51,506 bases of DNA from an uncultured Erysipelotrichaceae bacterium (GCA_900317295.1 ONGB01000004.1:15303-66808); one strand, 5' to 3'; positions 34,338-51,506 are shown, numbered from the stretch's first letter. Notes: generated from the sequence alone by a model not told the origin. A program made the numbers and translations.

Positions 34338-34350
34338 AGCGGGTTACTCC

Positions 34351-34453: not shown

Positions 34454-34491
34454 TCGTTTGGCCATCGAGAAATAAAAAAGGGGGCTTATGG

Positions 34492-34983: not shown

Positions 34984-36113
34984 CGGGCGATCGCCTCCCT
35001 AAGGGCTTCGGAGCGTTCGAAGTTGGCGAGGGTATCGAAGGCGTTTTGGTTGAATTGGTTGCTCTTCAATAGATCGGTGCGGATCCCATAATCGTTTAGG
35101 TTCTTCAGCGTGATGAGATTGCCCTCCCGATGCAACACGTTGACGTTATCGCACCGCTCGCCATGATCGAGCAATTCCGCATAGTGGGTGGTATAGATGA
35201 TCGTCGCGTGGGCCTTATTCACCTCGGGGTCGGCGTATAGGCCCATCAGGTCTTCCACCAGGTTGCGGTTGAAGTGGCGTTCGATCTCATCGACGAGCAC
35301 TTGCCCCCCTAAGCGGAAGGCCACCATCGACATCCCGAAAAGCAATATCCCCCGCAATGTCCCTTGGGAGAGGATGCGGGCCAAGGCGGAATAATCCATC
35401 ACCACGGGGCAGGAGCCCGCCCTTTGGAAGGCGTAGCCGATCATCTTCCCCCGCTCATAGGCGGGGCGGATCGAAGCGATGCTGTCGTCGAATAGATGGA
35501 GCAAGGCATCCAAGGCTTCTAAGCCATAGAGGTCTTCGATTTGGCCCATGAGGCTAGGCAACAAGCGCGGGGCCTCTTTGAAGTCCGCGTAGAAAAGCCG
35601 CGGTTCATCGGCGAACATCTTCGCGAGGTTCGAGGTATCCCCGCCGATATTGGGCAGGAAGCTGGAAACGCGGGCAAAGCCCAGATTGGAGAGGTCTTTC
35701 TTGTAATGCTTTTTCCAAGTGGTCTTCTCCAAAGACTCTTCTAGGATCAGGGGATATTGCCTTTCGGGGTTCCCCCGGAAGGAAAAAGTCCCCCGATATT
35801 GGTAGACGAGGCCTTTTTCATAGAAAAGGACCGATAGGGAGAAGGCTTCTTCCGGGATTTCATCCACGCGGATGGGCAACCTCCCCAAGAAGAGGAAGGA
35901 AAGCGTTAGGCCGAAAAGGTCCATCACGGTGCTCTTCCCGGAGGAATTCTTTCCTAAGAAGATGGTTTCGATCGGATAAGGGAGCCCGGGCGCCAATTCT
36001 ATTAATTCGGGGTTAGGGCCTCCGCTTACCCGCGTTTTCGTCAGGAGATTCACGGAGAATCCTTTTTCTAGCATCCGATAGCCCTTCGGCACGGAGATCT
36101 GCAATAACTTCAT
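34980..36113 (-). CDS. RloA-like ABC/AAA_21 ATPase (second copy)
   Basis: GKNSSGKS, LSQGTLRG, VLVDEIERHFN, TTHY; GGAGG before ATG 36113. Confidence 0.85.
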   Translation of the reverse strand: MKLLQISVPKGYRMLEKGFSVNLLTKTRVSGGPNPELIELAPGLPYPIETIFLGKNSSGKSTVMDLFGLTLSFLFLGRLPIRVDEIPEEAFSLSVLFYEKGLVYQYRGTFSFRGNPERQYPLILEESLEKTTWKKHYKKDLSNLGFARVSSFLPNIGGDTSNLAKMFADEPRLFYADFKEAPRLLPSLMGQIEDLYGLEALDALLHLFDDSIASIRPAYERGKMIGYAFQRAGSCPVVMDYSALARILSQGTLRGILLFGMSMVAFRLGGQVLVDEIERHFNRNLVEDLMGLYADPEVNKAHATIIYTTHYAELLDHGERCDNVNVLHREGNLITLKNLNDYGIRTDLLKSNQFNQNAFDTLANFERSEALREAIAR

Positions 36114-36472
36114 GGTTTTCCCTCCGCCAAAAGTATATCGGAGCATCGGTGAATAACAATAAAAATTATGTTTATATCCGTTTTTGGTGTTTATATTCGT
36201 AATATTCATGGCTTGGGTTGTTTTTTGTTCCCCTACCTTTCTATACACGGGAGACGGCCTACTCTGGCGAAAGAAAAATGAGGGATGGCAAAAAGAACTG
36301 AACCCATCGAAGAAAAAAGTTTTGTTTTTTTTATGCGAATTCTTAAGCGGCCTTATGGTTTCGCGTCATAAAGGCGAAGAGATCATTCCTAGCCCAGTAC
36401 CATCCACGGCGCCCTCCTTCCTTGCTTTGCTACGTTCATTTATAATGGGGGCGACGATAAGGAGCCCCCTAT

Positions 36473-37222
36473 ATGGTTATGAACAAAGCCTGCCTATTCT
36501 CGCTTATGTGCGCGCCTTTGCTTTTGGCATGCGCGCCCGTAAAAGAGGTGAACGCCATCGGCGATCCCCTTAACCCCACGATCGGGGATCTGCAGAACGC
36601 GATCAACGAGGCGGGGATGAATTTCACCAAGGTCACGACCATCGATTCCTATGATGGGGAATCCAGGTTCCCGTTCGAAGAAAAGAACCCCGCCACCCAG
36701 CTATATACCGAAGATGGGCTATATCAGGTGGAACGCAATTCGGGTTATTACAATGGTCCTAACGCCATCTGGCATTGCAGCAAAGGCGAAGGGGACACCT
36801 GGAACTACGCGTTATCCGAATCCACCTATCAGCATTACTATGACCGTTACACCACTTTCGCCTGCTTCAGCGGAACCTTCTGCTCGACCTATCTTTCCGC
36901 CACCGCGAAAGAAGGGTCAAATGGCTTATCCTATGTCAATGACCCGAGCAAGGACATCAGCCAAGCCCAGTTGATCCAATTGGTGTATATGCTGGCTCCC
37001 TTGGTCACGATCGATGAGGGCCAAACCATCTCTAACTATTCATTAGTATTCACGATGGATGCCGACCTCCATATGTCTTCGATCTCCATCGAATGCACGA
37101 TCAGCCAACTAGAAGGCGTGGAGAAATCCGGCTTGCTTAGATCGGAAGCCGTGTTCTCTGATATTGGGACCACCACCCTACCCTACGTCATCGCAGAGGA
37201 TGGCTCCGTCAGCAACGCCTAA
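36473..37222 (+). CDS. Lipoprotein of unknown function
   Basis: Lipobox LLLAC; TATAAT and AAGGAG upstream. Confidence 0.78.
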   Translation: MVMNKACLFSLMCAPLLLACAPVKEVNAIGDPLNPTIGDLQNAINEAGMNFTKVTTIDSYDGESRFPFEEKNPATQLYTEDGLYQVERNSGYYNGPNAIWHCSKGEGDTWNYALSESTYQHYYDRYTTFACFSGTFCSTYLSATAKEGSNGLSYVNDPSKDISQAQLIQLVYMLAPLVTIDEGQTISNYSLVFTMDADLHMSSISIECTISQLEGVEKSGLLRSEAVFSDIGTTTLPYVIAEDGSVSNA

Positions 37223-37244
37223 GGTCCTATCCATATAAGCAATA

Positions 37245-37271
37245 GCCCGATGCGCGGATTCGCATCGGGCT
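37245..37271. terminator. Bidirectional intrinsic terminator
   Basis: GCCCGATGCG...CGCATCGGGC between convergent genes. Confidence 0.75.
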
Positions 37272-37291
37272 TATGTTTTTATGCATCCCAC

Positions 37292-37804
37292 CTAGTGGTA
37301 GCCGAATAAGGAAATCGACATTTCAATTAAGGAGGATAAGGCGAAGAAGCCAAAGGGAAGGATAAGCAATATGGGATAGATCAATGCTTCGATATCCGTC
37401 CAGGCATGGGAGTAATAGACGGGGATGGCGAACACCGAAAGCGCTCCCATGTTCGCCGCGGCCAAGAAGACCTGCCAATACATCTTGGGGTTCACCCCTT
37501 TTATGCGCCACCCGCGGATATTGAGGATGAAGCCCAGGATCAGCAATGCCCCCATGACATAGAAACATAGGGGTAAGGCGATCCCTAGCCATCCCCCGCC
37601 GATCTTAAGCAAAAAGAAAGCGCCCCAGTTCATGGAACCTTCTATGGGCGATACCATGTAGCTACGAATAGATAAAGCGATTAGGTTAGCCGTGGATAAT
37701 AGAATAGCAACGACATTAAAAGTGATGATGGCGATGCTTTTATGGATGTTCTGCCGCGATACCAAAGCGGCCTTAAGGGCATCGCCTACTTCTTTTAATC
37801 CCAT
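37292..37804 (-). CDS. Four-TM membrane protein
   Basis: Four hydrophobic segments; AGGAG Shine-Dalgarno. Confidence 0.72.
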   Translation of the reverse strand: MGLKEVGDALKAALVSRQNIHKSIAIITFNVVAILLSTANLIALSIRSYMVSPIEGSMNWGAFFLLKIGGGWLGIALPLCFYVMGALLILGFILNIRGWRIKGVNPKMYWQVFLAAANMGALSVFAIPVYYSHAWTDIEALIYPILLILPFGFFALSSLIEMSISLFGYH

Positions 37805-38094
37805 GATGATCTCCTAAATACATAAGCATTATATAGCAAAAGGAGTTATAGGCAGGATAAAAGTGAGGAAATGGGCGTGATATGAAGATGGTTGGTAAGG
37901 ATTCTATGGGGAAAAGAGGCTCTCTAAACTCTAAGGTGGTTGGCTTTTCGGGCTGGCCACCTTGTTCTTTATAGCTTTGCTTGGTTTCGATTTAAGGAAA
38001 AGGCCTCCTTTGCTATCTTTTCCTGGACGTTGGGTCCACATTGCGATAAGAGCGACAGAAACTATCGCCCAGAGGCTGTTTATGTTGGCAAGCA

Positions 38095-38152
38095 AAGAAA
38101 AAGGGCAGCAATCATGTCTGCCCAAGCCCCGAGAAACCGGGGGATAATTGCA
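38095..38152 (-). ncRNA. Candidate small RNA downstream of the Abi gene (possible RNA antitoxin)
   Basis: Extended -10 TGTTACTAT (38158-38166), CCCCG/CGGGG hairpin, then GGGCAG/CTGCCC plus T-tract terminator. Confidence 0.45.
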
Positions 38153-38212
38153 CTCATATAGTAACACACTATTAATGAGGCGGGGGAATTATTTCTTTCT
38201 TTTCAGAGGAAA

Positions 38213-39190
38213 TCAAGGTTTTTTGATTACAGGAGGTACATTCAAAACGCCAAGATACTCCATGGCCTTACGAGTCAGACCCATCTTTTTGAAAACCTTT
38301 TTGCAAATATCCATCGGCAGTTTTTCCAGCAACTCGCCAATGGCAGAATCAATCGAGGCCATAACCGACTTAAAACGGCTAGAAGGCAGAAGAACCTTTA
38401 AACAAAGAAGGACCGTTGCAAACTTCTGATTGATATCGGGGGCGATATAAAGAGCCCCCTGCGATTCCAAGAAAGCCTTCGAAAGGCGGTCGCGGGGAGC
38501 GAAGCAATACACTCTGCCATTGTGCGCGCAGCAATTGCGGAAAATAGAAAGGATCTTCAGGGTCGTTTGGTAATCGCCCTGAGAAACTTTCGCTCTCGCG
38601 GCTATTGCGTTTTTTATGGGGCGCGCTAGGCACATGTAAAAGCGACTCGTTTGTCCAAACGTCATGTTCAATGCAGTGACCCACAGGGGGATATATCCGT
38701 AGGATTCTAGCGCGTGGCAAAACGGTTCCTCGCAATGCTTGATTGCATTATTAATTAGCCCGCTCAGTTCTTTGACCAATTGTTCGGCGCCGCTGGCTTT
38801 TTTGTCATATGAGGCTCTATCTAAATAGTCGTCAGCGGAGTGCATTCTTCGCCCGGAGGAATCCTTCGCATTGCCAAATTCATAAATTATGTGCGATTTC
38901 AGCTTATCCTCGGCATAAAGAACGGCCGGGAAGAGCGCATCCCGGAGGGCAAGATTGAAGTCATACAAAGCGACAAGATCATCGAAATGCGCACCGGGTC
39001 TGTATCGAGTTTTTTGGCTATTGGGGTCAAGAAAGATATCGCGGTAGCCATTCACAAAAGCGTAGTAAGAATGATTGGACAAAACCAATTCGGCCTTAGA
39101 ATACGAATCGATAATCAGCCCATCGCTTTGTAGCTTTTTGATCTGGGCTCTAATCGTGAGAAACGGCTTCGGTTTCTTAGGCATATTCAT
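38213..39190 (-). CDS. Abi_2 (AbiD/AbiF) family HEPN protein
   Basis: KPFLTI..QI..L...GL.I, YY..VNGY..IF, LY.FN..LR, E..LK, IPLWV....TFG, RNCCAHNGR. Confidence 0.9.
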   Translation of the reverse strand: MNMPKKPKPFLTIRAQIKKLQSDGLIIDSYSKAELVLSNHSYYAFVNGYRDIFLDPNSQKTRYRPGAHFDDLVALYDFNLALRDALFPAVLYAEDKLKSHIIYEFGNAKDSSGRRMHSADDYLDRASYDKKASGAEQLVKELSGLINNAIKHCEEPFCHALESYGYIPLWVTALNMTFGQTSRFYMCLARPIKNAIAARAKVSQGDYQTTLKILSIFRNCCAHNGRVYCFAPRDRLSKAFLESQGALYIAPDINQKFATVLLCLKVLLPSSRFKSVMASIDSAIGELLEKLPMDICKKVFKKMGLTRKAMEYLGVLNVPPVIKKP

Positions 39191-39447
39191 TATTATACGC
39201 CAAAAGATTCGTAAGAAGATTGCGGCTACAGGGGAAACGTATCCAAATACTGCCGTTTCAAATCCGAGACTCTCGCGAAAAGGCTTCGAGACGATGCCTA
39301 TCCGGGTCCTTTAAACCGCGCTTCTCGAATCGTCTGAAAACTAAAGATTTGGCCCCTATTCAGTTTCAGTGCCTTTCTTAATGTGACATTAATTCTATTC
39401 TTTTCGCAGAAAATAGAGAGCTTCTAACAAACAAAAAGGTTTAATCA

Positions 39448-40965
39448 CTAATAATTCTTCAAGACCCAGTTTACAAACCCCAGCAAATCCTCGGAGGGAG
39501 AAAATTTATTATCCTCCATTATTTTCTCGACATCGACTTTTGTATCTTTATATCCAAGTTTTTTCATGGCATATTCGAGAGATTTTTGGAGGCGATCCAA
39601 AAGCAGGTAATATTCAAAATTCTCACTGTATCCCTCAATTTCATTATTCTCCCCGATTTTATAAATGATCTTGAATAAATGAACGATGAAATACATTATG
39701 GAATATGCCAGTTTCATCAATTTCCTCTTGCCTTCATCGCCCGTCCGAAAATTGTTGGCTAGACGCTCGTCAAACTGTTTGACCGTTTCGTCCAACGAAG
39801 CCTCCTCCTTTCTTTTACCTCTACGGATGGAGACGGACCCATATTTTGGCGTATCAACACCAATCTCGAACCTTCTGTTGAAAAAATCCAAAATGGCAAC
39901 AATGAGTAGGGAAACGTTGGTTCCTGATCTTAAACCCTCACGAATCGCGTTTTTCTTTGCTTCGATGGTAAAAATGTCTCCTAAGTTACGTTTATAAAAC
40001 GCCCCTTCTCGGATTATTTCTTCGTCGGTTACTTCATCGTTGGCGGGGGAAATAAAACGGTCGCGGAAAAGAGACTTTGGGTCGGCAAAAATCTTCTTCT
40101 CTTCGCACTTATCCCACAGCTCTTTAATAAACGGATAATATTGCCTCAGTGTCTGAGACTTGGCGACCTTCGAATTGAAGATCTTCATAGACTTTACAAA
40201 AACCAAATCTTTATCTTCGATTTTTGCGAAGGCTTTTTCTTCAAGGGAGACGACCTTATCTGAGAGAGAAGTTACCTCGTTCAATACGGAAATCGCGGTT
40301 TCTAGCGGAGGGATCTTTTCGTCTTTCGATTCTTCCGTTTGTCCATTCGGCAGGTAAACATAGACCCTTTTCGTGCCAGAAACGCTAGCTTTGGAAATGC
40401 GCTTATCAATGATTTCGTAATATGGAACGCCACCGCTTATTATGGACGGGTAGTTTTCTTCCCTTTTGAAAATTATATATACGAAGATCGTTCCCTTTTC
40501 GGCGGCGTAAGTAATGGCCTTGTATTTCAAATAGTCAGTTGCTAAATCCAAATAGACGAAATTATTTTCCATTTTGTACTCAACAAAGACATGAGAAACC
40601 GGATCGCTATTTAGAAAATTCTTAATCTTAAAGTAACCGTCTACAAAGCATCTTTTCCATGGCTTTTCCTGTTTAGCTGCCTCAACCTCAGAGATGCGCG
40701 ATTGGAAGCTGGTTTCATCGAATCCGTTATTGAACTTAATCGAAAACTCATTGGCAAAAAGGGGAATCTGATAATTCAGCGATTCCAAATAATCTCGGAT
40801 TTTATGATTGGCAAAAAAGGCGACCGTTCTTTCGTTTGCGATATATGAGCAATTCTTTGTGAGATAATCAAAATCCGTCTTTTCGGCTTCAAAAGAGACT
40901 GCAAAGTTTTTAATTTCGCGATCCAAAGACTCAATGGCTGGATCGATATCTGCTTTAGTGAACAT
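39448..40965 (-). CDS. Hypothetical protein with N-terminal PD-(D/E)XK-like nuclease motif
   Basis: VDGYF...VFVEYK...DYLKY; AT-rich, 505 aa. Confidence 0.55.
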   Translation of the reverse strand: MFTKADIDPAIESLDREIKNFAVSFEAEKTDFDYLTKNCSYIANERTVAFFANHKIRDYLESLNYQIPLFANEFSIKFNNGFDETSFQSRISEVEAAKQEKPWKRCFVDGYFKIKNFLNSDPVSHVFVEYKMENNFVYLDLATDYLKYKAITYAAEKGTIFVYIIFKREENYPSIISGGVPYYEIIDKRISKASVSGTKRVYVYLPNGQTEESKDEKIPPLETAISVLNEVTSLSDKVVSLEEKAFAKIEDKDLVFVKSMKIFNSKVAKSQTLRQYYPFIKELWDKCEEKKIFADPKSLFRDRFISPANDEVTDEEIIREGAFYKRNLGDIFTIEAKKNAIREGLRSGTNVSLLIVAILDFFNRRFEIGVDTPKYGSVSIRRGKRKEEASLDETVKQFDERLANNFRTGDEGKRKLMKLAYSIMYFIVHLFKIIYKIGENNEIEGYSENFEYYLLLDRLQKSLEYAMKKLGYKDTKVDVEKIMEDNKFSPSEDLLGFVNWVLKNY

Positions 40966-41350
40966 TCATTTCTCCTCTGAAATAGTTTTGATCCCCTCAT
41001 CGCCCCTGTGGCTTGAGAAACATGTCTGCAAGGCCCTCCCTACACGAATGCCCGTGCCGATGAAGATGAATGAGTCCTCCCATCTTAGCGCATTTCTGGT
41101 CCGCGTCATTTTTTCCGCGAATTCTCCATCGAGTGTCGAAAAAGACAGCCCGAGCTGAGCTGCCAATCGAGAGATTCCCAGTAATGGGGCGGGCTTCGTA
41201 CTCTCGACGTCGAGGCGGCCCGTGTTGTGAGAGGCGTAGGATTCGCCTAGGCTCAATTTCTCGTTCCCGGTGGTGAAGTATTTGTCGTAATTGAGGTCGC
41301 GATTATCCGCTTTAACGCAGCAGCCTGATGTCTTTTCGTCATATAGGTGG
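40966..41350 (-). pseudogene. Decayed ORF between the ATPase and the nuclease-like gene
   Basis: Long stop-free frame ending in TGA immediately before the next ATG, but no good start or RBS. Confidence 0.3.
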
Positions 41351-41391
41351 CTTTATGCCATTTCAAAAAAATAGCTGCATCGTACACGAAA

Positions 41392-43593
41392 TCACGAAAT
41401 GGAATCGATCCATCTAGCGATTTCAATCAGTTTCTCGGCGCCCACATCAATCAATGGTTCATACATAAAACTGTTCGCATGAACATAAGAAGGGGCAACA
41501 ATGTTGGCTTCAAGCATCTTTCCGTATTCGTCATCAGTAATGAGCCCGTTTTCATGCGCTGTATTAATTAGATTACGAGTTTTGCCATAGATCTCGTCCC
41601 TCAGCAAGGAGGAATTAGAATTGGCGATTCTTGTCACCAGGACTTGTTCCATAAATACCCGAATAAAAACTCCCAAACATATCTTTTTCTCCAGTTCAGT
41701 TTCGTTAGTTGGATCAGGCGAATTGACAATCTCTTTCGCGACGTTTCGCAACACATCCAAGTAAGATTCATCGCCCTTGAGAATCTCCGGAAGTTGAACG
41801 TTCGAATACAGGGATTGGAAAGAACCTATTTTTAATTCGGGTGAGATTTTTGAGTCAAAATGAAGGTATGCATCAATCTTTTTTACATCTTTGCTTTTCG
41901 AACCATACTGCAATTGAAGCACATTTCTCGCAAAAGGTATTAAGGCGAGATATTTGGCCGGGGTGGGATTTTTCTTCCAATTATTGAAATCGACCACTTG
42001 GAGATAATAAGGCCTTTCCTTGGTCGAGGATAAGGCGCATTCACCTGTCGATTGTTGTTTATACAAAAAGAATTGTTCGCAATTTCGTCTTCCCCAAGCA
42101 ATGATCAGCGAACGATAGAAATCAAAGTTATGGGTGAAAACAATTAACTGAAGATTGGGGTCGGACGCGATTTCTGCCAGATAATCAATGAACCCGTATT
42201 TATTCTTATAGTCAAAGGAATCAACAGCATCATCCAAAATGATTGTCAAAGGTTTTTGCTCTAAGCGAGCGGATTCAACTTCGAGAATAAAGTTGATTAA
42301 GTAAAAAGTACGAATCTCTCCCGTGCTAAGACGTTTGTCGGCGGGATTAGTTATTTCTTCGTCCGTTCCTGGAACGATTTTAACGAATGTAGGTAGCGAA
42401 GCGCCGATCTCAGCATCAAATCGATTAGTAAGTTTCAATTCAAACTTATCAAATTTAAAACGATAGGAAAACTTGTTCCAAATCTTTGTGTATATTTGGT
42501 CGTCAACTACAGCGGAATTTCGAATTAAGTCGATTCTCTTCTGGGCCGCCTTGATTTCGGCAACAGCTACCGCACACTGTGCGGCCGAAGAGCCAAGCAG
42601 CGTTACCAAAATGGCATTCATCATACCCACATAGTCAACTAATCTAGGCAGCAATTCGGGGATTCTTTCCAGGATTGAAACGGTCCGTTGCGCCTTTTTG
42701 TTCTTGTTCAGTACCCCTTTAACCTTCGCAAAAGCGGCCTGTCCTTGCTGCGAGCCATAGACATCATTCACAGCTTCATCGATCACAGTTTTTACCGCGA
42801 TGGCATCATAATCCACTCCAGCCATTCTAAAAACGCGTTGTTTGTCTGCGTCGAAATAATGGAGCTCGATCGCCTTTGAATACAGCTCCTGAAGTTGTTC
42901 CAAGGAGAACTCCGAATCGAAAATACTCTTCGTGTTTGGAATGGGTTTCTTACTTAACACTAGGAAATCCGCCGCGCCGGACTGGACATCAGGATTTGCC
43001 ACGGCGGCCCCAACTTGGTCTTCTCCCAAATCAAGGAAATCATCAATTGTGATTTTTGAAACCATAGTCTTGGCGGAAAAATCCGCTTTTTCTGCCAAAT
43101 ATGTAAATAATTGGGGACTTTCTGCAGAACACCCGGCGATTTTTGCCAATGCTTTTTTGGCTCGAGCAACTTTATTTTTCGGAAACAAAGAAAGGACCAA
43201 ACCCTCGATGGTTTTGACACCGGCCTGAATCTTGTTCAAATCGTCCTGAACCTTTTTCTGAATAGTCGGGGAAATGGCCAGCACGCTCAATGCGTCGCCA
43301 TCGGGCAATTCATAAGCGTTCGTCCCGGAGTATTTCAGAACCTTGAAATCGGGGAAAGAATTTGGAGTGGCCCTGGTCGTCTCATCTACTTCGATTTCAT
43401 AATCTATAGGGGATAAACTGCCGTAGACATCCCCAATTTCATTATTCTTATTCGAAATATTAAATAGAGCGTCGGAGATCGAAGTTTTGGCCGTTCCATT
43501 TGGAGCATAAATCACGTTCAATCTGTCCAAGGCTTCCCCGCCCTTTAACCTTCTGATGCCGTATATGTTCTCAAATTTATGGATTTTGATCAT
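41392..43593 (-). CDS. AAA_13/RloC-like ABC ATPase with coiled coil and C-terminal effector-like domain
   Basis: IYAPNGTAKTS, LSTGE, IILDDAVDSFDYKNK, FTHNFDFYR, C-terminal HANSFMYEPLID. Confidence 0.8.
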   Translation of the reverse strand: MIKIHKFENIYGIRRLKGGEALDRLNVIYAPNGTAKTSISDALFNISNKNNEIGDVYGSLSPIDYEIEVDETTRATPNSFPDFKVLKYSGTNAYELPDGDALSVLAISPTIQKKVQDDLNKIQAGVKTIEGLVLSLFPKNKVARAKKALAKIAGCSAESPQLFTYLAEKADFSAKTMVSKITIDDFLDLGEDQVGAAVANPDVQSGAADFLVLSKKPIPNTKSIFDSEFSLEQLQELYSKAIELHYFDADKQRVFRMAGVDYDAIAVKTVIDEAVNDVYGSQQGQAAFAKVKGVLNKNKKAQRTVSILERIPELLPRLVDYVGMMNAILVTLLGSSAAQCAVAVAEIKAAQKRIDLIRNSAVVDDQIYTKIWNKFSYRFKFDKFELKLTNRFDAEIGASLPTFVKIVPGTDEEITNPADKRLSTGEIRTFYLINFILEVESARLEQKPLTIILDDAVDSFDYKNKYGFIDYLAEIASDPNLQLIVFTHNFDFYRSLIIAWGRRNCEQFFLYKQQSTGECALSSTKERPYYLQVVDFNNWKKNPTPAKYLALIPFARNVLQLQYGSKSKDVKKIDAYLHFDSKISPELKIGSFQSLYSNVQLPEILKGDESYLDVLRNVAKEIVNSPDPTNETELEKKICLGVFIRVFMEQVLVTRIANSNSSLLRDEIYGKTRNLINTAHENGLITDDEYGKMLEANIVAPSYVHANSFMYEPLIDVGAEKLIEIARWIDSIS

Positions 43594-43829
43594 TGTGCAC
43601 TCCCCAATTGTTCCGCGCCCAAATCGTCAGATAGCCTCTCTGCTCAAAGGCGCCCACGAACACTAGATGATTTCCATTTGTTATACTACAAGCGAACCAA
43701 CACCCCAAAGAATCTTTTCCATTTCGAAAGAAGGTGTTTGTTAGCTGTCAGATGATGTGAGACGCCTTCCGAGCTTCGGGCACCTGATCTCGCCTGTAGT
43801 TAACAACAGCTCCCTCAACTTTGCAAACT

Positions 43830-44100
43830 CGACTTGGTCCGACGATCTTTCCCCGGCACCATCTTGGACGTCGAGCTGTAACTCCTCATCCTTCCCACCC
43901 GCCCCCTTTTGTTCTCCGAGACCCCCCGCGAACCAATTGAAAAGTTTTAGCAAGCGGTATACCGAAGATCTTTTGACGCGGTAATAGGAAAGGACCTTCC
44001 GTACCTCCCAATGGGATTCGCGGATCCTTTTGCAGCTATGCAGCCTCGTTTGGTAAAGATGGGGCGTGTAATTCCTTGCCCCGGGTTGTGGTAGACTATC
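43830..44100 (-). mobile_element. Degenerate IS481-like transposase fragment
   Basis: YTPHLYQTRLHSC...YYRVKRSSVYRL HTH-like segment, frameshifted downstream. Confidence 0.45.
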
Positions 44101-44259
44101 CACGGCATCTTCCTCCTTTGCTTTCCTGGACAGAAAACATTGCAAGGCCGGATGCCTTTTTTCTTTATGGATTTTGCCTCACATCATTTGGAATGGAACA
44201 AAAAGTGAGGAAATAGGCCTGATATGAGGGTGGTTGGCAAGGATTCACAAGCGTGTTTC

Positions 44260-44444
44260 CCGTTTACGGGAATGCGAGCCCAAACCCTGATCCTGTTCGT
44301 GAAGGTTCCGTGTTTGCACCCGCCGGGGACGTTGATATGCTCACCCGCTTTATGTTTTCTAACGCATTCCAATTTAAATTCTTTCGTAAATCTCATAGAA
44401 AAGAGACCCTCCAGTTGGAAGTCCAACTTTTGGGTCTCATCTCA
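44260..44444 (-). mobile_element. IS3/IS150-family remnant (left IR plus OrfA HTH fragment)
   Basis: TGAGATGAGACCCAAAAGTTGGAC IR-like end (44421-44444), followed by MRFTKEFKLECVRK...IRVWAR. Confidence 0.7.
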
Positions 44445-44502
44445 GATCCGCAAATAAAAAGCCCATCTTGCTGCAACGACGTTGTCACCTAACAACCATC
44501 TT

Positions 44503-44817
44503 TCAATCCAATAAATCTGGACTGATATCGCGAGTACCAAAAGGGAGGCTAAAATACCCTGCATACCCAGGATAACCGGGATAACCGGGATAACCGGGAT
44601 AACCAGGGTAGCCAGGGTAAGGAAACTGTTCGTGGATGCGTCTTTCTAAAAGCCTATTATTGTTGAAAATTGTCCCCAAATAGCGACCCGCGGTATTAAC
44701 CGCCGTTTCATCGTCCCACGGAAACCAACCAATCCACTTGCCTTTGGTGTTATAAAGATTTTTCCCAATTTTAAAAGCAATCCACCTACCAGAAGAGTTA
44801 AAGAGATAATGCACCAT
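44503..44817 (-). CDS. Small '4-fold beta-flower'-like protein with a (PGY)6 tail
   Basis: Repeats of [LF].N..G.WI[AG][FW] / NTAGRYLGTI, then PGY x6. Confidence 0.7.
   Translation of the reverse strand: MVHYLFNSSGRWIAFKIGKNLYNTKGKWIGWFPWDDETAVNTAGRYLGTIFNNNRLLERRIHEQFPYPGYPGYPGYPGYPGYPGYAGYFSLPFGTRDISPDLLD
44563..44616. repeat. 9-bp coding tandem repeat x6 (ATAACCGGG consensus)
   Basis: Three perfect and three synonymous-variant units encoding Pro-Gly-Tyr. Confidence 0.9.
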
Positions 44818-44819
44818 AA

Positions 44820-45617
44820 TTATTTGAGTGTTTTTCTGCTAATCCATTCATTTCCATTTGGACGTATAACCAATACCTCGATAGGGCCACCCACAGTTTT
44901 TTCCGTAGAAAGAAATCTCTGTGCATCAATTGTGGTTTGTATTCCGAACCGCGCAAAGTCAATCGCATCTTGGAGGGAAAACAAACCCCAAGAAATTGTT
45001 GCTTCCGAAAAAACAGTGGAACCCTTTTTAGGAATAATGAAGGCATCGGGAATCGTTATTATCGACGAACTTTTCGTATCGAAGAATTCCAGGTTTTCGG
45101 CCTCAAAAGTTTTTTTGGGGAGAATGCTTTCTTTTATTAATCTAGATAATATCTCGGTCACCCCATCCCAAATTGCTCCAGATTGATTTGGTGAAGAAAT
45201 CTCCGTGCACATTTTTAGTTCGCCGGTTTCCAAAACAATTTTAAATAGTCTTTCCGTTGAAGGAATCCCTTGGGGGTCTCTGTCGTAACCCGCTATGTGG
45301 AAAAACAATAAGCCTTTATATCCTGGTATAGAGAAAAATTCGATCAAAGAATTGGCAAAATCGCGCACTGTATGATTGGTTGAATAATCGTAAGAAGCGA
45401 TAAAACGCTCGACATAGCCGGCAATAGGTTGTCCATTAATGGATGCGACTCCACAACTTGAAATTCCGAATCCGTTTGGGGCGGCAAAAAGTTTGCGGGC
45501 GTTGTCCGAAAAAGGGAAACTTCTTTCCCTTGAGCGAGTGCTTATCGTTTGCGTTGTTCGGCTCTCACCTGCCAAAACAATGCCTTCATTGCAGAAAACC
45601 GAGATAATAAGCGACAC
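44820..45617 (-). CDS. Proteasome-beta-like Ntn hydrolase
   Basis: (M)SLII....EGIVLAGESRTT, KLF, G.ASING, IAGYD, DAIDFA, TVGGPIEVLVI; GGAGG plus GTG start. Confidence 0.8.
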   Translation of the reverse strand: MSLIISVFCNEGIVLAGESRTTQTISTRSRERSFPFSDNARKLFAAPNGFGISSCGVASINGQPIAGYVERFIASYDYSTNHTVRDFANSLIEFFSIPGYKGLLFFHIAGYDRDPQGIPSTERLFKIVLETGELKMCTEISSPNQSGAIWDGVTEILSRLIKESILPKKTFEAENLEFFDTKSSSIITIPDAFIIPKKGSTVFSEATISWGLFSLQDAIDFARFGIQTTIDAQRFLSTEKTVGGPIEVLVIRPNGNEWISRKTLK

Positions 45618-45759
45618 GATCCACCTCCTTGGCGATTGTTCATGATAATCGTATTACAACCAAAGCAAATGAAGGTAATAGAAAAATATTGTTGCTGTGT
45701 TACTTGACAGAGAGATCGCAACAACCCGGCCGAGTGTAAGGCCTTTTTCACCTTTTCCC

Positions 45760-45890
45760 TCCATCGGCTATCATTTCCTCCCCGCCGACGTCCTGAGGAA
45801 GCTCAGGGCGCTCCAGAAGCTGCTCGGCGCCGATTACGCCGGCGCGTTCGAGTGCAACCTGAGCGACAACGGATGCGAGTTCGCCAAGTT
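45760..45890 (+). mobile_element. IS30-like transposase fragment
   Basis: GC-rich patch encoding ...LQKLLGADYAGAFECNLSDNGCEFAKF (SDNG.EF integrase-core motif). Confidence 0.6.
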
Positions 45891-46019
45891 TAACAAGAGG
45901 GGCAAAGATTGCAAAATATTCCCATCGCCAGACAAAAACACTGTAAAGTTAGATTCCTTTTGTTTTGCGGGTTTTATCTCGACCATTTAAAGAAACCCTT
46001 AACCGCGATATTGGATTCG

Positions 46020-47123
46020 CTAAAGGCGTTTTGCCCTGAAGATTTGATGGTACATTTCGAGCAATTCTTCAAGCGTAATGGAGATACCAGCAGCCCCTAG
46101 TTTCGGTTTTCTCTTGCGGAAGAGTTTTTCGATCAGGATATCGGCGTCCTTCCCATAATGGATTTCATTATGACAACTGCTGCATAGAGAAATAATGTTT
46201 TCCGGGACATCAAGCGAGTTCTCAAAACGTCCTTGGAAACAAAGCGGGATAAGGTGATGAACTTCCGTATAGGGCTTGCCGTTGCTTCTTTTTATGAAAC
46301 ATTTATGGTTTGGATTGTTCTCGCACATATGGCGGGCATTTTTAAGCGCGTAGGCCGCCATTCGAGGATTTCTAGTCAAAAATAGGATGCCATTGGGGGC
46401 CCTTTGGGGTTTGGCCTTGGGCTGTGGGCGGGTTACGTATTCGTCAACGGGATCGTCGACGTCTTCCAATTCGCGGTTCAACCGATCGTCTTCGAAATCG
46501 TTTGTTTCGAATAGAGTCGCCAGTTTGCCACCACCATAGGTGCGATATAAATAATCCGTGAATTCGTGATTGGTTAGTTGAGGAAAAAACTTGTCCTTAT
46601 AATCCAGCAAACGTTTCTGGCACATTTCGAATTTATCATCCACAACGAGACCCAAACACTGTTCAAAATATCGGAGATCACTCTCGATAAATGAAGGGAG
46701 CATGATCTTTGGGTTATAAAGGTAAATGACCTTCCGTTTGAACACGGGGGATAAAATGGGGGACTCTAGATCTTCGAAAACGGCAAGATTCAGAGCTTCT
46801 CTAATAATCCTAGCCAGCTCTTTTTTTATCAAAGAAAAGGCTGTGTCCGGGTTCCTTTCGAAATGTTGTTTGGTTGCCCTCAATCTTACGATTTTGTCTT
46901 TCCCTTGCGTGCCATACCAGAGGCCATATTTGGCAGAAGTCGAGCCGCGGATTTCACCCAAATCCTTCAAACCGTATTCGACTAAGTAGCAGAAAGATTT
47001 GTTGTTTTTCCCGTAGCCGATTACATATTCCCTCGGATCGGACATGTTCTCCAAATAATCGGGGACGAAATGAGTAACCAAATAATTCCAATCTTTTTTT
47101 GTTTTCTTGGTGAGTTTATTCAC
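46020..47123 (-). CDS. HNH endonuclease (McrA-like C-terminal domain) with N-terminal putative DNA-recognition domain
   Basis: CENNPNH..F...GKPYTEVHHLIPL...NIISLCSSCHNEIHYG. Confidence 0.88.
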   Translation of the reverse strand: MNKLTKKTKKDWNYLVTHFVPDYLENMSDPREYVIGYGKNNKSFCYLVEYGLKDLGEIRGSTSAKYGLWYGTQGKDKIVRLRATKQHFERNPDTAFSLIKKELARIIREALNLAVFEDLESPILSPVFKRKVIYLYNPKIMLPSFIESDLRYFEQCLGLVVDDKFEMCQKRLLDYKDKFFPQLTNHEFTDYLYRTYGGGKLATLFETNDFEDDRLNRELEDVDDPVDEYVTRPQPKAKPQRAPNGILFLTRNPRMAAYALKNARHMCENNPNHKCFIKRSNGKPYTEVHHLIPLCFQGRFENSLDVPENIISLCSSCHNEIHYGKDADILIEKLFRKRKPKLGAAGISITLEELLEMYHQIFRAKRL

Positions 47124-47142
47124 GATTCAGCGTTCCCTTAAT

Positions 47143-47931
47143 TTAGAAGTCAATGTCAATAATTTGTCCATCTTGTATATATGTCCCGTGTTTAATGTGA
47201 CATTTTTTGTGGCTAGCTTGGCAAAACTCGATCACCTTTCTTGCCGTTTCGTTATAAAAATTTTGATATCCTTTATACTCTCCAACTTTTTTGTTGTAAT
47301 GCAGCCTTCCGAAAACAATTTTATCCACAAAAGCAACGCGATGGAGTATGTCTTCGATGGGAGTATCGCCAATGTTTGGCGTCGGGAACGGCTCGATGCT
47401 CACCCACGTTTGGCATCCGGTGTTGTGCAGTTTTTCTAGAGCTTCGATTCTTTGATTGTAAGTAGAGGAAAACGGCTCATAAACTTTCCTAAACTGTTCG
47501 GAAAGCGACACCAAAGTAATGCCGAATTGGTTTCCTTTAAATGTCTGAGATAATTCGTAAGGCAAAGTCCCTTTGGTTAAAACGACAACAGGAATATGGT
47601 AGTGATTAATCCTATGTATCATTTTTATCGACATATCTTGAACTTCCGGGTATTCATCCATAAACGGATCGGTAGTAAAACAAAGGTGTATGGATTCTAT
47701 TTTTCCTGCCAGTTTTGGCAGTTCTTTGTCCAAGAGATCCAAGGCGTTAGCCACAAGGCGCGGTTTAATCCATTCGGAATACGTTTTCACGTTTCCAAAC
47801 CTCTTGGCCATATTGAAGGCATAGCACGGGAAATTACACCCATGGGCACACCCCAACACATGGTTCGCAGTGTAATCTCCATATTCGACAGCGGTTTTGT
47901 AGAGAAGTGTTTTCCTGATTATGGTGTCCAT
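47143..47931 (-). CDS. Radical SAM protein (SplB/DUF5131-like)
   Basis: NHVLGCAHGCNFPCYA, FTTDPF, LTKG, GITL, EP....RIEAL, TWVSIEP; start could alternatively be 47940. Confidence 0.85.
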   Translation of the reverse strand: MDTIIRKTLLYKTAVEYGDYTANHVLGCAHGCNFPCYAFNMAKRFGNVKTYSEWIKPRLVANALDLLDKELPKLAGKIESIHLCFTTDPFMDEYPEVQDMSIKMIHRINHYHIPVVVLTKGTLPYELSQTFKGNQFGITLVSLSEQFRKVYEPFSSTYNQRIEALEKLHNTGCQTWVSIEPFPTPNIGDTPIEDILHRVAFVDKIVFGRLHYNKKVGEYKGYQNFYNETARKVIEFCQASHKKCHIKHGTYIQDGQIIDIDF

Positions 47932-47959
47932 GGATTGCATCCTCACAAGCAGAAGGAAT

Positions 47960-48799
47960 CTATTGTTTCGAACGGAGTATATGCCCGGCAATTCTGTTCG
48001 CAAGGTCAATCGCTTTTTTCTCGGGGTTCGCCGTCATAAAGAATAAAACAAATAAAATGCTTCCCTTCTCATTTTTTAGGATTTTTGGATTTGGCGCGAC
48101 AAATGGGAAAAGGGCAGAAAGTCTGTTCTTAGTATATTCTATCAAAGCCTCCGAATTAACCTTTGCATATTCGCTTTCGTAAGACCCGGGCAACAAGGAA
48201 AGCTGAACCGCCTTCTTCTTCTTATACAACGATTCTTTCCAATTGGTGCAGCCAAAGCACTTATCAATTCTTTGTTCCCAGAGTTTCGTCTGCTCAATAT
48301 CTTTGGTAAGCATGCGATTGACCGCAGAAAACGGAAACAGAAACCACACATCGCTATGTCTCGTTTCGGCGATTAATTGCAATGTTTTCCACTCTGTTTC
48401 TGTAGCAAAAGGGTCCAAAAAGAAAACGGCACGAGATTTCTCCCACTTAGTTGAACGGATGAATGTGGAAAGTGCCTTATTAGCATCTTCATTTATGATG
48501 TAAATCTTCTTGTCTGGATGGGCAGAAGCCATTTGACTCAATCTGCTTGCTTTTTCTTTATTCTTTTCTATAAAAATGTACCGATCAAATGGATGGGTTA
48601 CGTTAAGAGCCATTTGAGCTGAGCCTTCGATAATATTGCCGTTTCGTAACCGGACGACGCCCTCTCCAGCAAAACCGTCCACATAGATTCTTTCAAAAGA
48701 AAATTTTTTGAGTGCTGTGGCATATGCATCCAGATAGCTAAAGATGATATCAAGCTTTTTTATAGTCCAATCGCCACCAAATGTTCCGTCAGGTTCCAT
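47960..48799 (-). CDS. tcmP: Three-Cys-motif partner protein TcmP (SAM-dependent methyltransferase-like)
   Basis: GGDWT..KL....YL.AY, IYVDGFAGEG, GSA..AL, YIFIEK, DAN, FLDPF, W.TL..IA, DVW.LFP. Confidence 0.88.
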   Translation of the reverse strand: MEPDGTFGGDWTIKKLDIIFSYLDAYATALKKFSFERIYVDGFAGEGVVRLRNGNIIEGSAQMALNVTHPFDRYIFIEKNKEKASRLSQMASAHPDKKIYIINEDANKALSTFIRSTKWEKSRAVFFLDPFATETEWKTLQLIAETRHSDVWFLFPFSAVNRMLTKDIEQTKLWEQRIDKCFGCTNWKESLYKKKKAVQLSLLPGSYESEYAKVNSEALIEYTKNRLSALFPFVAPNPKILKNEKGSILFVLFFMTANPEKKAIDLANRIAGHILRSKQ

Positions 48800-48879
48800 T
48801 AGCAAATCCTTCTTTAGCGAATTGATTATATCGTTAAAACCTTATCGACGTGAGCCCCTTAGGACAGTCAAAACAATAC

Positions 48880-49165
48880 TTGTTCATGGATAGGGAAATT
48901 TTATGGTCATTTCCCCTTGCCGGAACCGAATAGGGGGATATGGTCCCGAAGAAAATCTTGGCATCGAACCAAAGGTTCATCCTCTTCACGTATTCATGGT
49001 CCAGCCCGGCTTTTTCTCCGAGATCGTGTTCCCGGCTCATCTTGAGCTGGGCGTATCCCCCTAGGCCGGGCCTGGCATCATAGGCCGAAGGCGTATAGGA
49101 TTCCCGGGCGAGGGTGAGTTCCTCTTCGTTATGCGCGGAACCCGGCCTAAGGTCGAGAGAATGTA
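48880..49165 (-). pseudogene. C-terminal fragment of a bacterial sugar transferase (priming glycosyltransferase)
   Basis: RPG......L...R......RPGLGGYAQL......EKAGLDHEYV....WFDAKIFFGTI; GC-richer than its flanks; N-terminus absent. Confidence 0.7.
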
Positions 49166-49218
49166 AGTGACAGAAATAACCACGGTGTGATGGCGATGCC
49201 CGCACCATAGCTATAGTT

Positions 49219-50502
49219 TTATTTCATAAGCGATTTTGCATACTTCCGGAACTCAGCTTTGTATGCGGCGTGCGAAGGATACCACAGGGGAATAACCCCC
49301 ATTCGTAATAGAAAGAGAGTTTTATACAGGATAACTTCATCCGATAGACCTTCTGTAGAGCCATAGAAATAGTGAAACTGCGAAGGATGATCTTCGAAAT
49401 GGTTGCTGATGACTTTTTGTTCCTCGTAATCAGTTAAACTGTTGCCCACGAAACAACATGTGTCATTCAAGTGATCATAAAGCTGTTTGTAGCCATACGA
49501 AGACGGAGACTTGTAGTTTGCGAAGTATTCGTCCGTGGTCAAGACCAAGGAGCGGTAATGATATGCGAAAACGGGATTAGGAAACTTAGGAATAAACCCG
49601 TGCGAATGAATAACTTGGAAGGATGAGTAGTGATTTGGTGGCTGAATCGGCATTGTCTTGAAAAAAGTCACGACATCCGCTTGATAGCATTTCTTCAAAG
49701 CACGCTCAAGCCAATCGTCGTAATTGAAAGTCAAAACCTTTTGCCCGTTTTTCGCCCGTCGAAGGGATTGCGCATACAAGACAGCAGCAACAGCGGTTAA
49801 TGTAGTGTCGTCCGAGGGGGATGGTTCTATCGCAGAATTGATGACATCTTCAATTATCTTTTGGTATTCTGTGACGGAAATGTCCTTGGTGATTTGGAAA
49901 AAACCGTAGTTGCTATTGAATGTATTTTGGCTGATTTCTTCGCACGCTCCCTTTTTCCCGAGGATACAATCGGTGGCTCCCTTGAATTCTTTTTCTAAAT
50001 CTTTCCAAAGAGGAAAGCCGTATCCGGAGTTAATCCCTGAGCCTACGACAAATCTATAGTCGTAGTTCTTCAGCCTTCTTAATTCCAAGAGGGCTTCGAT
50101 CTTCCCGTATTCAAAGTCGTAAAGAAAGTTGTCTCGGGAGGCGTCGATAAGTAGATCGACTATATCGGGGTTCAAAGAATCAGGATATTTGACTAAAGGT
50201 AGAAATTCTAAATCAGTTGGGGTTAAAAACCGACAGAAGCGTTTATCTTTATTTCTGAACAACACATACGAAGTTAACTCTCCATCGAAAATCTTTAGCC
50301 TCAAGCTATAGGATTGTTTAATCGCTTTATCATTTTGGTCTTCGGGCCGGAATTCTTCAAAAAACGACTCCCTCGACAACCTGCTCACTTTTTCCCCTTT
50401 CAAAAAACAATTGAGGCCGACAAGCAAAAGAAAGAAACGTCGGATTTCTGGTCCTTTCAGAGCCATCGCTCGATCAAATTGCTGATAGTTCATTTGTGCC
50501 AT
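49219..50502 (-). CDS. SIR2-like (SIR2_2) domain protein with unknown N-terminal domain
   Basis: FVVGSGIN..YGFPLW..L, LTFNYDDWLE, HSHG, VLTTDEY, FVGNSLTD. Confidence 0.85.
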   Translation of the reverse strand: MAQMNYQQFDRAMALKGPEIRRFFLLLVGLNCFLKGEKVSRLSRESFFEEFRPEDQNDKAIKQSYSLRLKIFDGELTSYVLFRNKDKRFCRFLTPTDLEFLPLVKYPDSLNPDIVDLLIDASRDNFLYDFEYGKIEALLELRRLKNYDYRFVVGSGINSGYGFPLWKDLEKEFKGATDCILGKKGACEEISQNTFNSNYGFFQITKDISVTEYQKIIEDVINSAIEPSPSDDTTLTAVAAVLYAQSLRRAKNGQKVLTFNYDDWLERALKKCYQADVVTFFKTMPIQPPNHYSSFQVIHSHGFIPKFPNPVFAYHYRSLVLTTDEYFANYKSPSSYGYKQLYDHLNDTCCFVGNSLTDYEEQKVISNHFEDHPSQFHYFYGSTEGLSDEVILYKTLFLLRMGVIPLWYPSHAAYKAEFRKYAKSLMK

Positions 50503-50992
50503 CCCTTTGGACTTCCGTTATCTTAGCACGCCGATTATTTTTTGGCGCTTGGGAACATAGCAAGAGCCTGAGGGAAATCCAGTGTCCGTGCGTCTGGGAT
50601 CTTTCAATTGAAAACTCACTCATTGGAACGATATTCAAATGCATAGGAGGTTCAATTTCTTCCAAGATTTGCTTTTATAATCTTTTCCGAACAAAGCCAC
50701 AAAACTTTACACACAAATATGATGCCTAGAAGGGGCGTGAAACATGGCAAAACAGGAGCGGCACCAACATACCCGGACGCGGTTGCGAAAAAACAATTAT
50801 TAGTGCTGCCTAACCGGGCCGCCGAAGAGCTCCAGTTTCTTAAGCAGAGACTTCATATTCTCGAAGTCTCCTGGGTTCTTTGATTTTTGAAGTTCCGGCC
50901 CCTCTACTTTTGACTAACTCGTCTATGGGCGTCCTTCAAAAGACGCGTGATTTCAAATCTCGGCGGCCAGGATCGATTGTCATTTCCGCAAA

Positions 50993-51506
50993 TTAAGAAG
51001 TGGCGCTTTTTTCAAAGCTCTCACGGAGTTTAGATACGGCAGAATCGATTAGATGGATCACGTATTCGGGAACTGTATCCTGCGAAACTTCATCAATGGT
51101 GAAAACATACTGATGTTCAATGTGGGCAGTATCGTCTACAACGGCTTTGAAAACCGCCTTTCCGTGGAAAACGTCATCTTTTTTCCCTTGTTTTTCCAAG
51201 AAGATTGCGATCATCCTAAAGACCGCCAATTTATCAAAACGGTTTGAACAACGATCATATGCCTCAAGCAAGAGCTTTATCGAATTGAAGGAGGCCAAAA
51301 GCGCATCGTAATTATCGGGCAACGAGGTGAAATGGTTCTTAAGCTGGCTCTCAGCGTTTTTCAAATCTTCATCAGTGAACGGAATTTCATGGCCACTATC
51401 ATCTTCGTGGGCGGGGGAGGGGCGGAAATGGATTAAGGAAGATAGGTAATCGTATACATTAGGGCCGCCCCAAGAAGAGAGCTCCGCATGGCGCCTCATG
51501 TGAAGA
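50993..51506 (-). CDS. C-terminal part of a probable AAA_13/RloC-like ATPase (partial)
   Basis: YDYLSSLIHFR...LAVFR...AHIEHQYVFTID....VPEYVI resembles C-termini of island ABC ATPases; frame runs off the window. Confidence 0.5.
   Translation of the reverse strand, partial: LHMRRHAELSSWGGPNVYDYLSSLIHFRPSPAHEDDSGHEIPFTDEDLKNAESQLKNHFTSLPDNYDALLASFNSIKLLLEAYDRCSNRFDKLAVFRMIAIFLEKQGKKDDVFHGKAVFKAVVDDTAHIEHQYVFTIDEVSQDTVPEYVIHLIDSAVSKLRESFEKSATS

Follow-up and report, generated by a model that had tools for sequence, protein, structure and literature searches.

Three genes at positions 46,020 to 48,799 of a 51,506-nucleotide (nt) stretch of DNA from an uncultured Erysipelotrichaceae bacterium (GCA_900317295.1 ONGB01000004.1:15303-66808; this whole stretch is hereafter called the window) raise the question of whether a tightly packed row of genes is also a functional unit. 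The genes encode a TcmP protein, a radical S-adenosylmethionine (SAM)-type protein and an HNH protein. A previous analysis made from the sequence alone, here called the sequence-only reading, proposed that they form a new restriction-modification (RM)-like system, in which TcmP and the radical SAM enzyme install an unusual DNA base modification, and the HNH protein discriminates modified from unmodified DNA. We find that the first two genes belong to a conserved pair, and that the HNH gene is not linked to this pair elsewhere. With a probability of about 0.68, we consider that the locus consists of a variant of the TcmP/three-Cys cassette and, in a variable cargo slot behind it, an unrelated nuclease of type IV-like build that is encoded by a single gene; both lie in a defense island.

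Layout of the locus

Reading of the open reading frames (ORFs) reveals three co-oriented, tightly packed genes within 46020-48805. In order of their direction of reading, these are as follows.

47960-48799, minus strand: TcmP, predicted class-I SAM methyltransferase-fold partner of three-Cys-motif proteins, 279 amino acids (TIGR04474, PDC-M41A, AlphaFold2 model)
47143-47940, minus strand: radical-SAM-type three-Cys partner, 265 amino acids, divergent DUF5131 homologue judging by sequence profiles (PF04055, hhalign)
46020-47123, minus strand: HNH protein, predicted stand-alone type IV-like restriction endonuclease, 367 amino acids (PADLOC, 6ghc match)

The gap between the TcmP and radical SAM genes and that between the radical SAM and HNH genes are each 19 nt long. 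The G+C content of the three genes is 42.1%, compared with 51.2% for the window, 54.5% for bases 1-31800 (the housekeeping side) and 45.8% for the island at 31900-51506. The close spacing, common orientation and uniformly low G+C content described in the sequence-only reading are thus all present. Promoter- and terminator-like sites within 45500-49400 are about as frequent as in shuffled sequence, and the radical SAM and HNH genes have none between them. Given these chance-level sites, the 19-nt gaps and the similar G+C content, the three genes may be one transcript.

For TcmP, both an ATG at 48799 and a TTG at 48805 could serve as start codon. We took the ATG, because GAAGGA is located 7 nt upstream of it and homologues begin there. 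The radical SAM gene is read from an ATG, with a second ATG at 47931 as an alternative, and the HNH gene starts with GTG; homologues of the HNH protein with 360-369 amino acids cover 96-99% of its length.

A conserved pair of TcmP and radical-SAM-type genes

The identification of the first gene as TcmP was borne out. Its product belongs to NCBIfam TIGR04474, scoring 186.5 bits (cut-off 53) over model positions 1-255 of 263, and matches the PADLOC model PDC-M41A with an E value of 2.4e-79; a Pfam scan assigned it to no family. An AlphaFold2 model based on an alignment of 37 sequences has a pLDDT of 92.8, and its top Foldseek matches are DUF519 (2oo3), RlmJ and Trm1, with TM scores of roughly 0.47-0.50. 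A profile search of the PDB yielded an RsmD-like methylase (E 0.021) and DUF519 (E 0.31), both of which are marginal matches. The conserved (F/L)DP(F/Y) of TcmP aligns with the DPPY-type motif IV region of these two proteins, and a DxFAGxG motif, N107, D129 and P130 are invariant in the 37 sequences. The model clearly predicts that TcmP has a class-I methyltransferase fold of the RlmJ/RsmD type, with no close relative among solved structures.

The second protein is a member of the radical SAM family PF04055, as had been supposed (33.7 bits, cut-off 29.5, residues 49-224 of a 288-amino-acid ORF). Canonical radical SAM proteins bind their cluster with a CX3CX2C motif. The corresponding motif here, GCAHGCNFPCYA, departs from that spacing and reads Cx3Cx3C; all 20 of the 20 subfamily sequences share GCxHGCxxPCYA. 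The protein scores 22.2 bits with Pfam DUF5131 (PF07505, Gp37/Gp68), below the cut-off of 28.9, and is therefore not a member of that family; its match to PADLOC PDC-M41B has an E value of 1.3e-5 over residues 38-146. To compare it with the proteins that accompany TcmP elsewhere, we used a profile of 42 such partners, of which 40 are Pfam DUF5131. The hhalign comparison spanned 202 columns, gave a probability of 97.85 and an E value of 6.5e-13, and aligned the three Cys residues. On the basis of this profile-profile comparison, the protein is by sequence a divergent homologue of DUF5131, which is the usual three-Cys partner, and lies outside the curated family. Homologues of the window type are numerous (3530, 1396 and 220 cluster representatives at E <= 1e-3, 1e-10 and 1e-30, respectively), and this subfamily occurs mostly in Bacillota-type metagenome-assembled genomes and viral contigs.

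The resemblance to spore photoproduct lyase that the sequence-only reading had noticed holds at the level of the superfamily: the RadicalSAM.org paper assigns DUF5131 to megacluster 5-2, adjoining spore photoproduct lyase in 5-3. At family level it does not hold. The protein is not a member of the SplB-type NCBIfam families PA0069 (48.9 bits, cut-off 360) or Rv2578c (37.7 bits, cut-off 430), and PDB searches with the single sequence and with a profile found no meaningful match.

We scanned for TcmP with an alignment, taking a single genome for each species. Of the first 600 pattern matches, 575 were confirmed as relatives, and the best 80 loci were analyzed. A three-Cys partner is located within 300 nt of TcmP in 75 of these 80 loci, and is DUF5131 in 53, a window-type radical SAM protein in 19 and another radical SAM protein in 3. 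The DUF5131 gene is downstream on the same strand in 39 loci, convergent in 8 and upstream in 6. The 19 window-type partners are 51-60% identical to the window's protein and reside directly downstream of TcmP; in the window, the partner gene likewise adjoins TcmP. In two other loci, DUF5131 is 1.4-1.7 kb away. The remaining three have no partner; all are on short contigs of about 2.4-6.1 kb, with one TcmP gene near the contig end.

Similar results come from fused and viral genes. A TcmP domain forms the N-terminus of 54 of 67 longer proteins that carry the radical SAM domain, and several of these proteins are named TcmP in their source records. Because such natural fusions are common, we conclude that TcmP and the radical SAM protein act together. 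A search of viral contigs with the radical SAM profile found 69 loci, 67 of which have a called radical SAM gene; in 60 of the 67, a TcmP-like gene lies within 150 nt upstream on the same strand, and this gene is mostly a TcmP paralogue of about 376 amino acids resembling PDC-M30A. The earlier statement that TcmP pairs with three-Cys radical-SAM-like proteins therefore agrees with all three data sets, which argue that the two genes are a true conserved functional pair acting as one unit, perhaps as one enzyme.

The pair is sporadic. Among 40 relatives of the window's genome, TcmP scores above its cut-off in only 1, and the HNH gene yields only partial matches, in 5; neither is therefore core to the genus. 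The available examples support the view that the pair frequently resides on mobile or viral DNA, in the company of defense genes. For example, Synechococcus phages have TcmP with a convergent DUF5131 gene, and in Gordonia phage BaxterFox a TcmP-like gene (24.6% identity over 66% of the query) lies between the immunity repressor and integrase genes, next to the repressor. On plasmid pSymA of S. meliloti (locus L166), TcmP is accompanied by a weak second TcmP-like ORF (E 1.2e-5) and by DUF5131 on the opposite strand; a published gene list places the S. meliloti TcmP gene SMa2243 next to hna.

Variations in architecture were observed at several loci. In a genome of the same order (L161, contig G030:C7), a 404-amino-acid TcmP-like gene immediately precedes a window-type radical SAM gene (E 2.6e-133), with no HNH gene adjacent. 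Eight loci (L011, L014, L017, L019, L021, L022, L026 and L029) have two tandem TcmP paralogues before the radical SAM gene, one of about 375 amino acids (PDC-M30A-like) and one of about 289. In BaxterFox (NC_031226.1, L165:4960-5973), we observed a full-length DUF5131 ORF (E 8.6e-115, local hidden Markov model (HMM)) that is convergent to the TcmP-like gene 42. This ORF overlaps the annotated small genes 39-41, and the record seems to miss a gene or to annotate the wrong strand. A protein of 1135 amino acids (P0180; five member sequences on four contigs) has the radical SAM domain fused to a primase-polymerase/D5-helicase-like protein (NrS-1 pol HBD, DUF5906, D5_N, Pox_D5), which ties the domain to a mobile-element replication protein.

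No conserved linkage of the HNH gene to the pair

If the three genes formed one system, the HNH gene should recur beside the pair. An HMM of the HNH family, built from 31 sequences, matched in none of the 80 TcmP loci. Conversely, a metagenome scan with the same alignment produced 73 HNH-family loci, about 10 of them full-length, and neither the TcmP nor the radical SAM HMM matched in any of the 73. The 69 viral radical SAM loci contain only two weak HNH-motif matches (E 1.6e-5 and 1.5e-4), neither of which adjoins the pair. Full-length HNH homologues were found behind genes for MetRS and a tRNA U5-methyltransferase (L086, L087) or near DUF2971 genes (L084, L086). Conserved linkage of modification and nuclease genes, as expected of a classical RM system, is thus absent for these three genes. 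Because the HNH family is missing from TcmP loci and the pair is missing from HNH loci, the proposed three-gene restriction system is not supported, and the HNH protein is best regarded as an independent nuclease that merely adjoins the pair.

A closely related arrangement was found in a sheep-gut variant, most contigs of which are 95-99% identical to the window. Low-depth DNA contigs over 47053-47397 and 47433-48497 preserve both gene junctions. This variant is the same lineage, so it provides no independent evidence for linkage of the three genes. Sequencing runs that contain window DNA are labelled as bovine and sheep gut metagenomes; among the 12 runs listed, none is of RNA.

The HNH protein resembles single-gene type IV enzymes

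The McrA-type HNH domain was predicted correctly. The HNH protein matches PF01844 with 26.8 bits (cut-off 21.4) and EcoKMcrA (6ghc) with an E value of 2.9e-15; structural comparison gave a VIA Z score of 9.5 for EcoKMcrA, with a root mean square deviation of 2.6 over 95 residues, and of 8.3 for ScoMcrA (5zmm). The PADLOC model mREase_IV matches residues 226-335 (E 1.4e-15). The HNH domain occupies approximately residues 243-343, and H289, H290, N309, C314, C317, H318 and H322, which include the residues expected of a McrA-type catalytic site, are invariant in 31 homologues.

The N-terminal domain, approximately residues 1-205, is of a different kind. Residues 22-200 match positions 43-218 of the 383-position PADLOC model PD-T4-1 (E 7.9e-30), so the model is covered only in part. 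Residues 1-205 also match Atlas models with TM scores of 0.75-0.86, which correspond to the N-termini of long HNH proteins, of NOV_C (DUF3883) proteins of about 380 amino acids and of McrB-like AAA_5 proteins; some of the McrB-like clusters also carry EVE. Foldseek found no match that identifies the fold of this domain, and the best VIA result, a Z score of 4.1 to 8-oxoguanine glycosylase, is too weak to name it. PD-T4-1 is listed among PD-(D/E)XK nuclease systems in a preprint (bioRxiv 10.1101/2025.07.10.664194). Because PD-T4-1 has PD-(D/E)XK, the Atlas neighbors have NOV_C and the present protein has HNH, the nuclease domain appears to have been swapped. Judging from sequence matches and the predicted structure, the protein seems to combine an N-terminal domain of the PD-T4-1 type with a McrA-type nuclease domain, a build that is usual among type IV (modification-dependent) restriction enzymes encoded by a single gene.

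This build does not suit the role proposed for the nuclease in the sequence-only reading. By analogy with its modification-dependent relatives, the HNH protein would be expected to cut modified foreign DNA, and would not be blocked by a host mark.

Genes downstream of the pair

The sequence-only reading had suggested counting nuclease neighbors of TcmP-radical SAM pairs. Such neighbors are common in the window-type subfamily, and the HNH family is not among them. In 7 of the 19 window-type genome loci, the gene order is TcmP paralogue, TcmP, radical SAM and type III Mod, and the genes are 9-43 nt apart; Mod begins about 9-16 nt downstream of the radical SAM gene, and the Res helicase is also present in 3 of the 7. 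Other loci have Shedu SduA 117 nt downstream of the pair (L002), a GHKL ATPase 48 nt downstream (L003) or a type I HsdR two genes upstream (L050). In viral loci, the downstream gene is type III Mod in 11 of 67, a 673-amino-acid SspE-like (GmrSD/SspE-like) DUF262 protein in 4 (one representative judged), a protein from a serine-recombinase cluster in 3 (identified from one representative) and a 645-amino-acid protein in 4; the rest belong to small clusters or are singletons. The 645-amino-acid protein (cluster 2) was considered as a possible third component and rejected, since it is mostly 1.5-3.5 kb away on the other strand, and since one phage has the protein without the pair.

We also scanned 109 ORFs flanking the 80 TcmP loci, which are mostly DUF5131-type pairs, after leaving out 7 Mod, 8 TcmP-paralogue and 8 convergent DUF5131 flanks and all ORFs shorter than 120 amino acids. 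Each family is represented at most three times (ResIII 3, N6_N4_Mtase 2), and many of the ORFs are housekeeping genes. The slot downstream of the pair is variable and often holds restriction-type genes; that such genes are enriched there is an impression, and applies to the window subfamily only.

Competing explanations

In the explanation that we favor, the locus comprises two modules. In the first, TcmP would be a SAM-binding protein with an RlmJ/RsmD-type methyltransferase fold, and the 265-amino-acid radical SAM protein should hold a 4Fe-4S cluster on its Cx3Cx3C motif. Together, the two proteins would rely on SAM to mark a nucleotide or a base of a nucleic acid chemically, and their genes would be carried by prophages and islands as an accessory cassette that probably acts against phages. 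The second module would be the HNH protein, a single-gene nuclease of type IV build that works alone. Its location 19 nt behind the pair would be due to a slot for variable cargo, without the two modules being partners, although they may be co-transcribed here. Several points weigh against this explanation. The PDC systems to which the pair is related are predictions, and we infer the pair's chemistry, target and defense role; because the flanks of DUF5131-type pairs are mostly housekeeping genes, the defense role is not secure. The matches of TcmP to solved methyltransferases are marginal, and the TM scores of its fold are only about 0.5. The identical gaps, similar G+C content and chance-level promoter and terminator signals among the three genes must also be counted here, as must the preservation of both junctions in the sheep-gut variant, although that variant is of the same lineage. 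Finally, genes for DNA restriction occupy the downstream slot more frequently than might be expected of a slot chosen at random, which fits a modular partnership too.

The 19-nt gaps, common orientation, shared low G+C content and lack of above-chance promoter or terminator sites between the genes speak for a single three-gene RM-like operon, in which TcmP and the radical SAM protein mark host DNA bases and the HNH protein cuts according to the mark. The nucleic-acid methyltransferase-like fold of TcmP, the placement of the radical SAM protein in megacluster 5 with spore photoproduct lyase and the recurrence of restriction-type genes downstream of related pairs also fit such an operon. However, the linkage is not conserved, members of the HNH family are found by themselves in the midst of housekeeping genes, and pairs followed by type III Mod already own a self-marking methyltransferase. 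Moreover, the closest solved relatives of the HNH protein (EcoKMcrA, ScoMcrA and TagI) are modification-dependent, and by analogy a nuclease of this type would attack a marked host genome. We regard the operon as very unlikely. A looser arrangement is that the pair is a portable accessory serving whichever nuclease fills the downstream slot (type III Mod/Res, GmrSD-like DUF262, McrA-like HNH or Shedu). The pair might then mark invading DNA or back up inhibited restriction, and the HNH protein might be a lineage-specific working partner. This arrangement would explain the neighbors in the window-type genome loci listed above (7 Mod, 1 Shedu, 1 HsdR and 1 GHKL ATPase) and the 11 Mod and 4 DUF262 neighbors in viral loci. 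It also agrees with the definition of PDC candidates by their embedding in RM, BREX or DISARM systems. On the other hand, the genes found in the slot include serine recombinases, small ORFs and numerous singletons of unrelated kinds; the 109 other flanking ORFs, from which known Mod and paralogue flanks had been removed, add only the few ResIII and N6_N4_Mtase matches among many housekeeping genes; and the neighbor counts are raw counts. We consider this arrangement unlikely. The more general proposition that TcmP/three-Cys pairs are portable marking modules cooperating with the slot nuclease, so that the window's genes form a mark-and-cut or guarded-restriction unit, seems quite improbable to us; if true, it would describe a unit based on a radical-SAM chemistry for which restriction systems so far offer no precedent.

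Alternatively, the pair might not be an immune system at all, and might be a nucleic-acid repair or damage-response enzyme with radical chemistry like that of spore photoproduct lyase, or a device with which mobile elements modify themselves against host restriction. The shared megacluster 5, the weak SplB-type NCBIfam matches, the 69 loci on viral contigs, the Synechococcus and Gordonia phage examples and the primase/D5-helicase-like fusion are all consistent with one of these roles. However, the window's pair lies in a chromosomal island full of defense-type genes, and the BaxterFox TcmP-like gene adjoins the immunity repressor, between repressor and integrase. Also, no Cheo-type LexA box precedes TcmP: sites in the window matching GAACN4GTTC with at most one mismatch number 19, compared with 21.65 expected by chance, for a consensus that may not be that of this taxon. 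A repair or self-modification role thus appears doubtful, and we assign it a low probability.

The surrounding island

The three genes lie in a horizontally acquired, low-G+C, defense-type island of a genome assembled as 1.6 Mb in 91 contigs. The island carries genes for two AAA_21 ATPases, an MqsA-like HTH protein, an Abi_2 protein, a PDC-S46 ATPase, a Bflower protein and a SIR2_2 protein. Features near the three genes are as follows.

48834-49208, minus strand: sugar transferase C-terminal fragment, a scar upstream of TcmP (PF02397 Bac_transf)
45618-46019, no strand: spacer of 402 nt downstream of the HNH gene, with no recognizable gene in Pfam, tblastn and rve searches
41392-43593, minus strand: ABC/AAA_13 ATPase, 733 amino acids, PADLOC candidate PDC-S46 (PDC-S46 E 3.4e-97 over residues 6-725; AAA_13 E 6.7e-14)
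49219-50502, minus strand: SIR2_2-domain protein, 427 amino acids (PF13289 E 3.1e-10)

The sequence-only reading had placed scars on both sides of the three genes. That of the sugar transferase is real: the ORF upstream of TcmP matches only positions 116-175 of the 179-position Bac_transf profile (E 1.4e-9), which is the C-terminal third. The IS30 scar proposed at about 45.7-46.0 kb is unsupported. The 97-amino-acid ORF at 45697-45990 has no Pfam match even at an E value of 1 and no tblastn match in plasmids, and a search for rve (PF00665) through the whole genome gave eight matches, none of them on the window's contig. A short DNGxEF-like motif in the ORF at about 45.7-46.0 kb is readable by eye only. 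A 90-nt segment of the spacer recurs with 76% identity on a second contig of this genome.

The 733-amino-acid ATPase is, from its profile matches, a candidate single-gene defense system. The SIR2_2 gene, which has no PADLOC model match, is wedged between the sugar-transferase fragment and an ORF of 168 amino acids. At 44503-45617 on the minus strand, a gene for a 265-amino-acid protein is followed, after a 3-nt gap, by one for a 104-amino-acid Bflower-domain protein with PGY repeats, and these two genes are possibly a further unit of the island. The 265-amino-acid protein (44820-45617) has no Pfam, PADLOC or PDB match. We considered whether it corresponds to the proteasome-like gene beside the HNH homologue of locus L082, and rejected this idea (BLASTP E 0.91, no PDB match). 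The region 43600-44450 is richer in G+C (about 48-50%) and has short, broken ORFs with no Pfam support at an E value of 1 or better; one of them starts MRFTKEFKLECVRKHKAGEHI and by eye has the look of a transposase OrfA remnant.

Comparison with known systems

The pair is already catalogued, and that of the window is a variant of the widespread TcmP/three-Cys pair, which occurs in bacteria and phages and for which archaeal records exist. It resembles the PADLOC candidates PDC-M41 and PDC-M30 in its strong TcmP member, its two-gene layout, in which the partner immediately follows TcmP, the homology of this partner to DUF5131 and its sporadic distribution on mobile DNA. The window's partner differs in that it falls under the DUF5131 cut-off, matches PDC-M41B only at an E value of 1.3e-5 and passes PF04055. 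Its Cx3Cx3C motif contrasts with the DUF5131 consensus of Cx6Cx2C, and its subfamily differs from DUF5131 pairs in being found mostly in Bacillota-type assemblies and viral contigs. The PDC systems are 145 candidates, predictions only, which were defined by their embedding in RM, BREX or DISARM systems (Payne et al., bioRxiv 10.1101/2024.01.29.577857); its main text does not name M41 or M30. Our literature search found gene-list mentions only, and no functional study of TcmP or of a DUF5131 pair. To this record, the present locus adds a second partner subfamily, homologous to DUF5131 and with altered cysteine spacing. It also adds the observation that TcmP fusions to the radical SAM domain are common, which argues for one enzyme, and that the gene behind the pair occupies a variable slot often holding restriction-type genes. 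A tempting but unsupported three-gene model is removed.

Among characterized proteins, TcmP is most like RlmJ/DUF519 and the RsmD-type N-methyltransferases, which are the top structural matches of its model and align in the motif IV region. The likeness is limited to TM scores of about 0.5 and profile E values of 0.021-0.31, and DP(F/Y)G in TcmP is one residue shorter than DPPY. TcmP also differs from RlmJ in always being paired with a radical-SAM-type protein; we know of no such pairing for RlmJ. The radical SAM protein shares with spore photoproduct lyase and SplB-like COG1533 proteins the megacluster of DUF5131 and weak NCBIfam matches around its cluster-binding half, and is distinguished by scores far under the cut-offs, the absence of a PDB sequence match and other Cys spacing.

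The HNH protein agrees with EcoKMcrA and ScoMcrA (6ghc, 5zmm) in its C-terminal HNH match and in consisting of two domains, with a reader ahead of HNH. Its N-terminal domain is unrelated to that of McrA, and dependence on modification is suggested here by analogy only. PD-T4-1 (PDLC04021) is reportedly a single-gene anti-T4 defense found by Vassallo et al. in 2022. The HNH protein is like it in its N-terminal 180 or so residues, in being encoded by a single gene and in length (367 amino acids, compared with a model of 383 positions). The two differ in their nuclease, which is PD-(D/E)XK in PD-T4-1 and HNH here, with NOV_C in Atlas neighbors of similar size. The HNH protein thus appears to be a domain-swapped relative of the validated PD-T4-1 defense, in which HNH has replaced PD-(D/E)XK.

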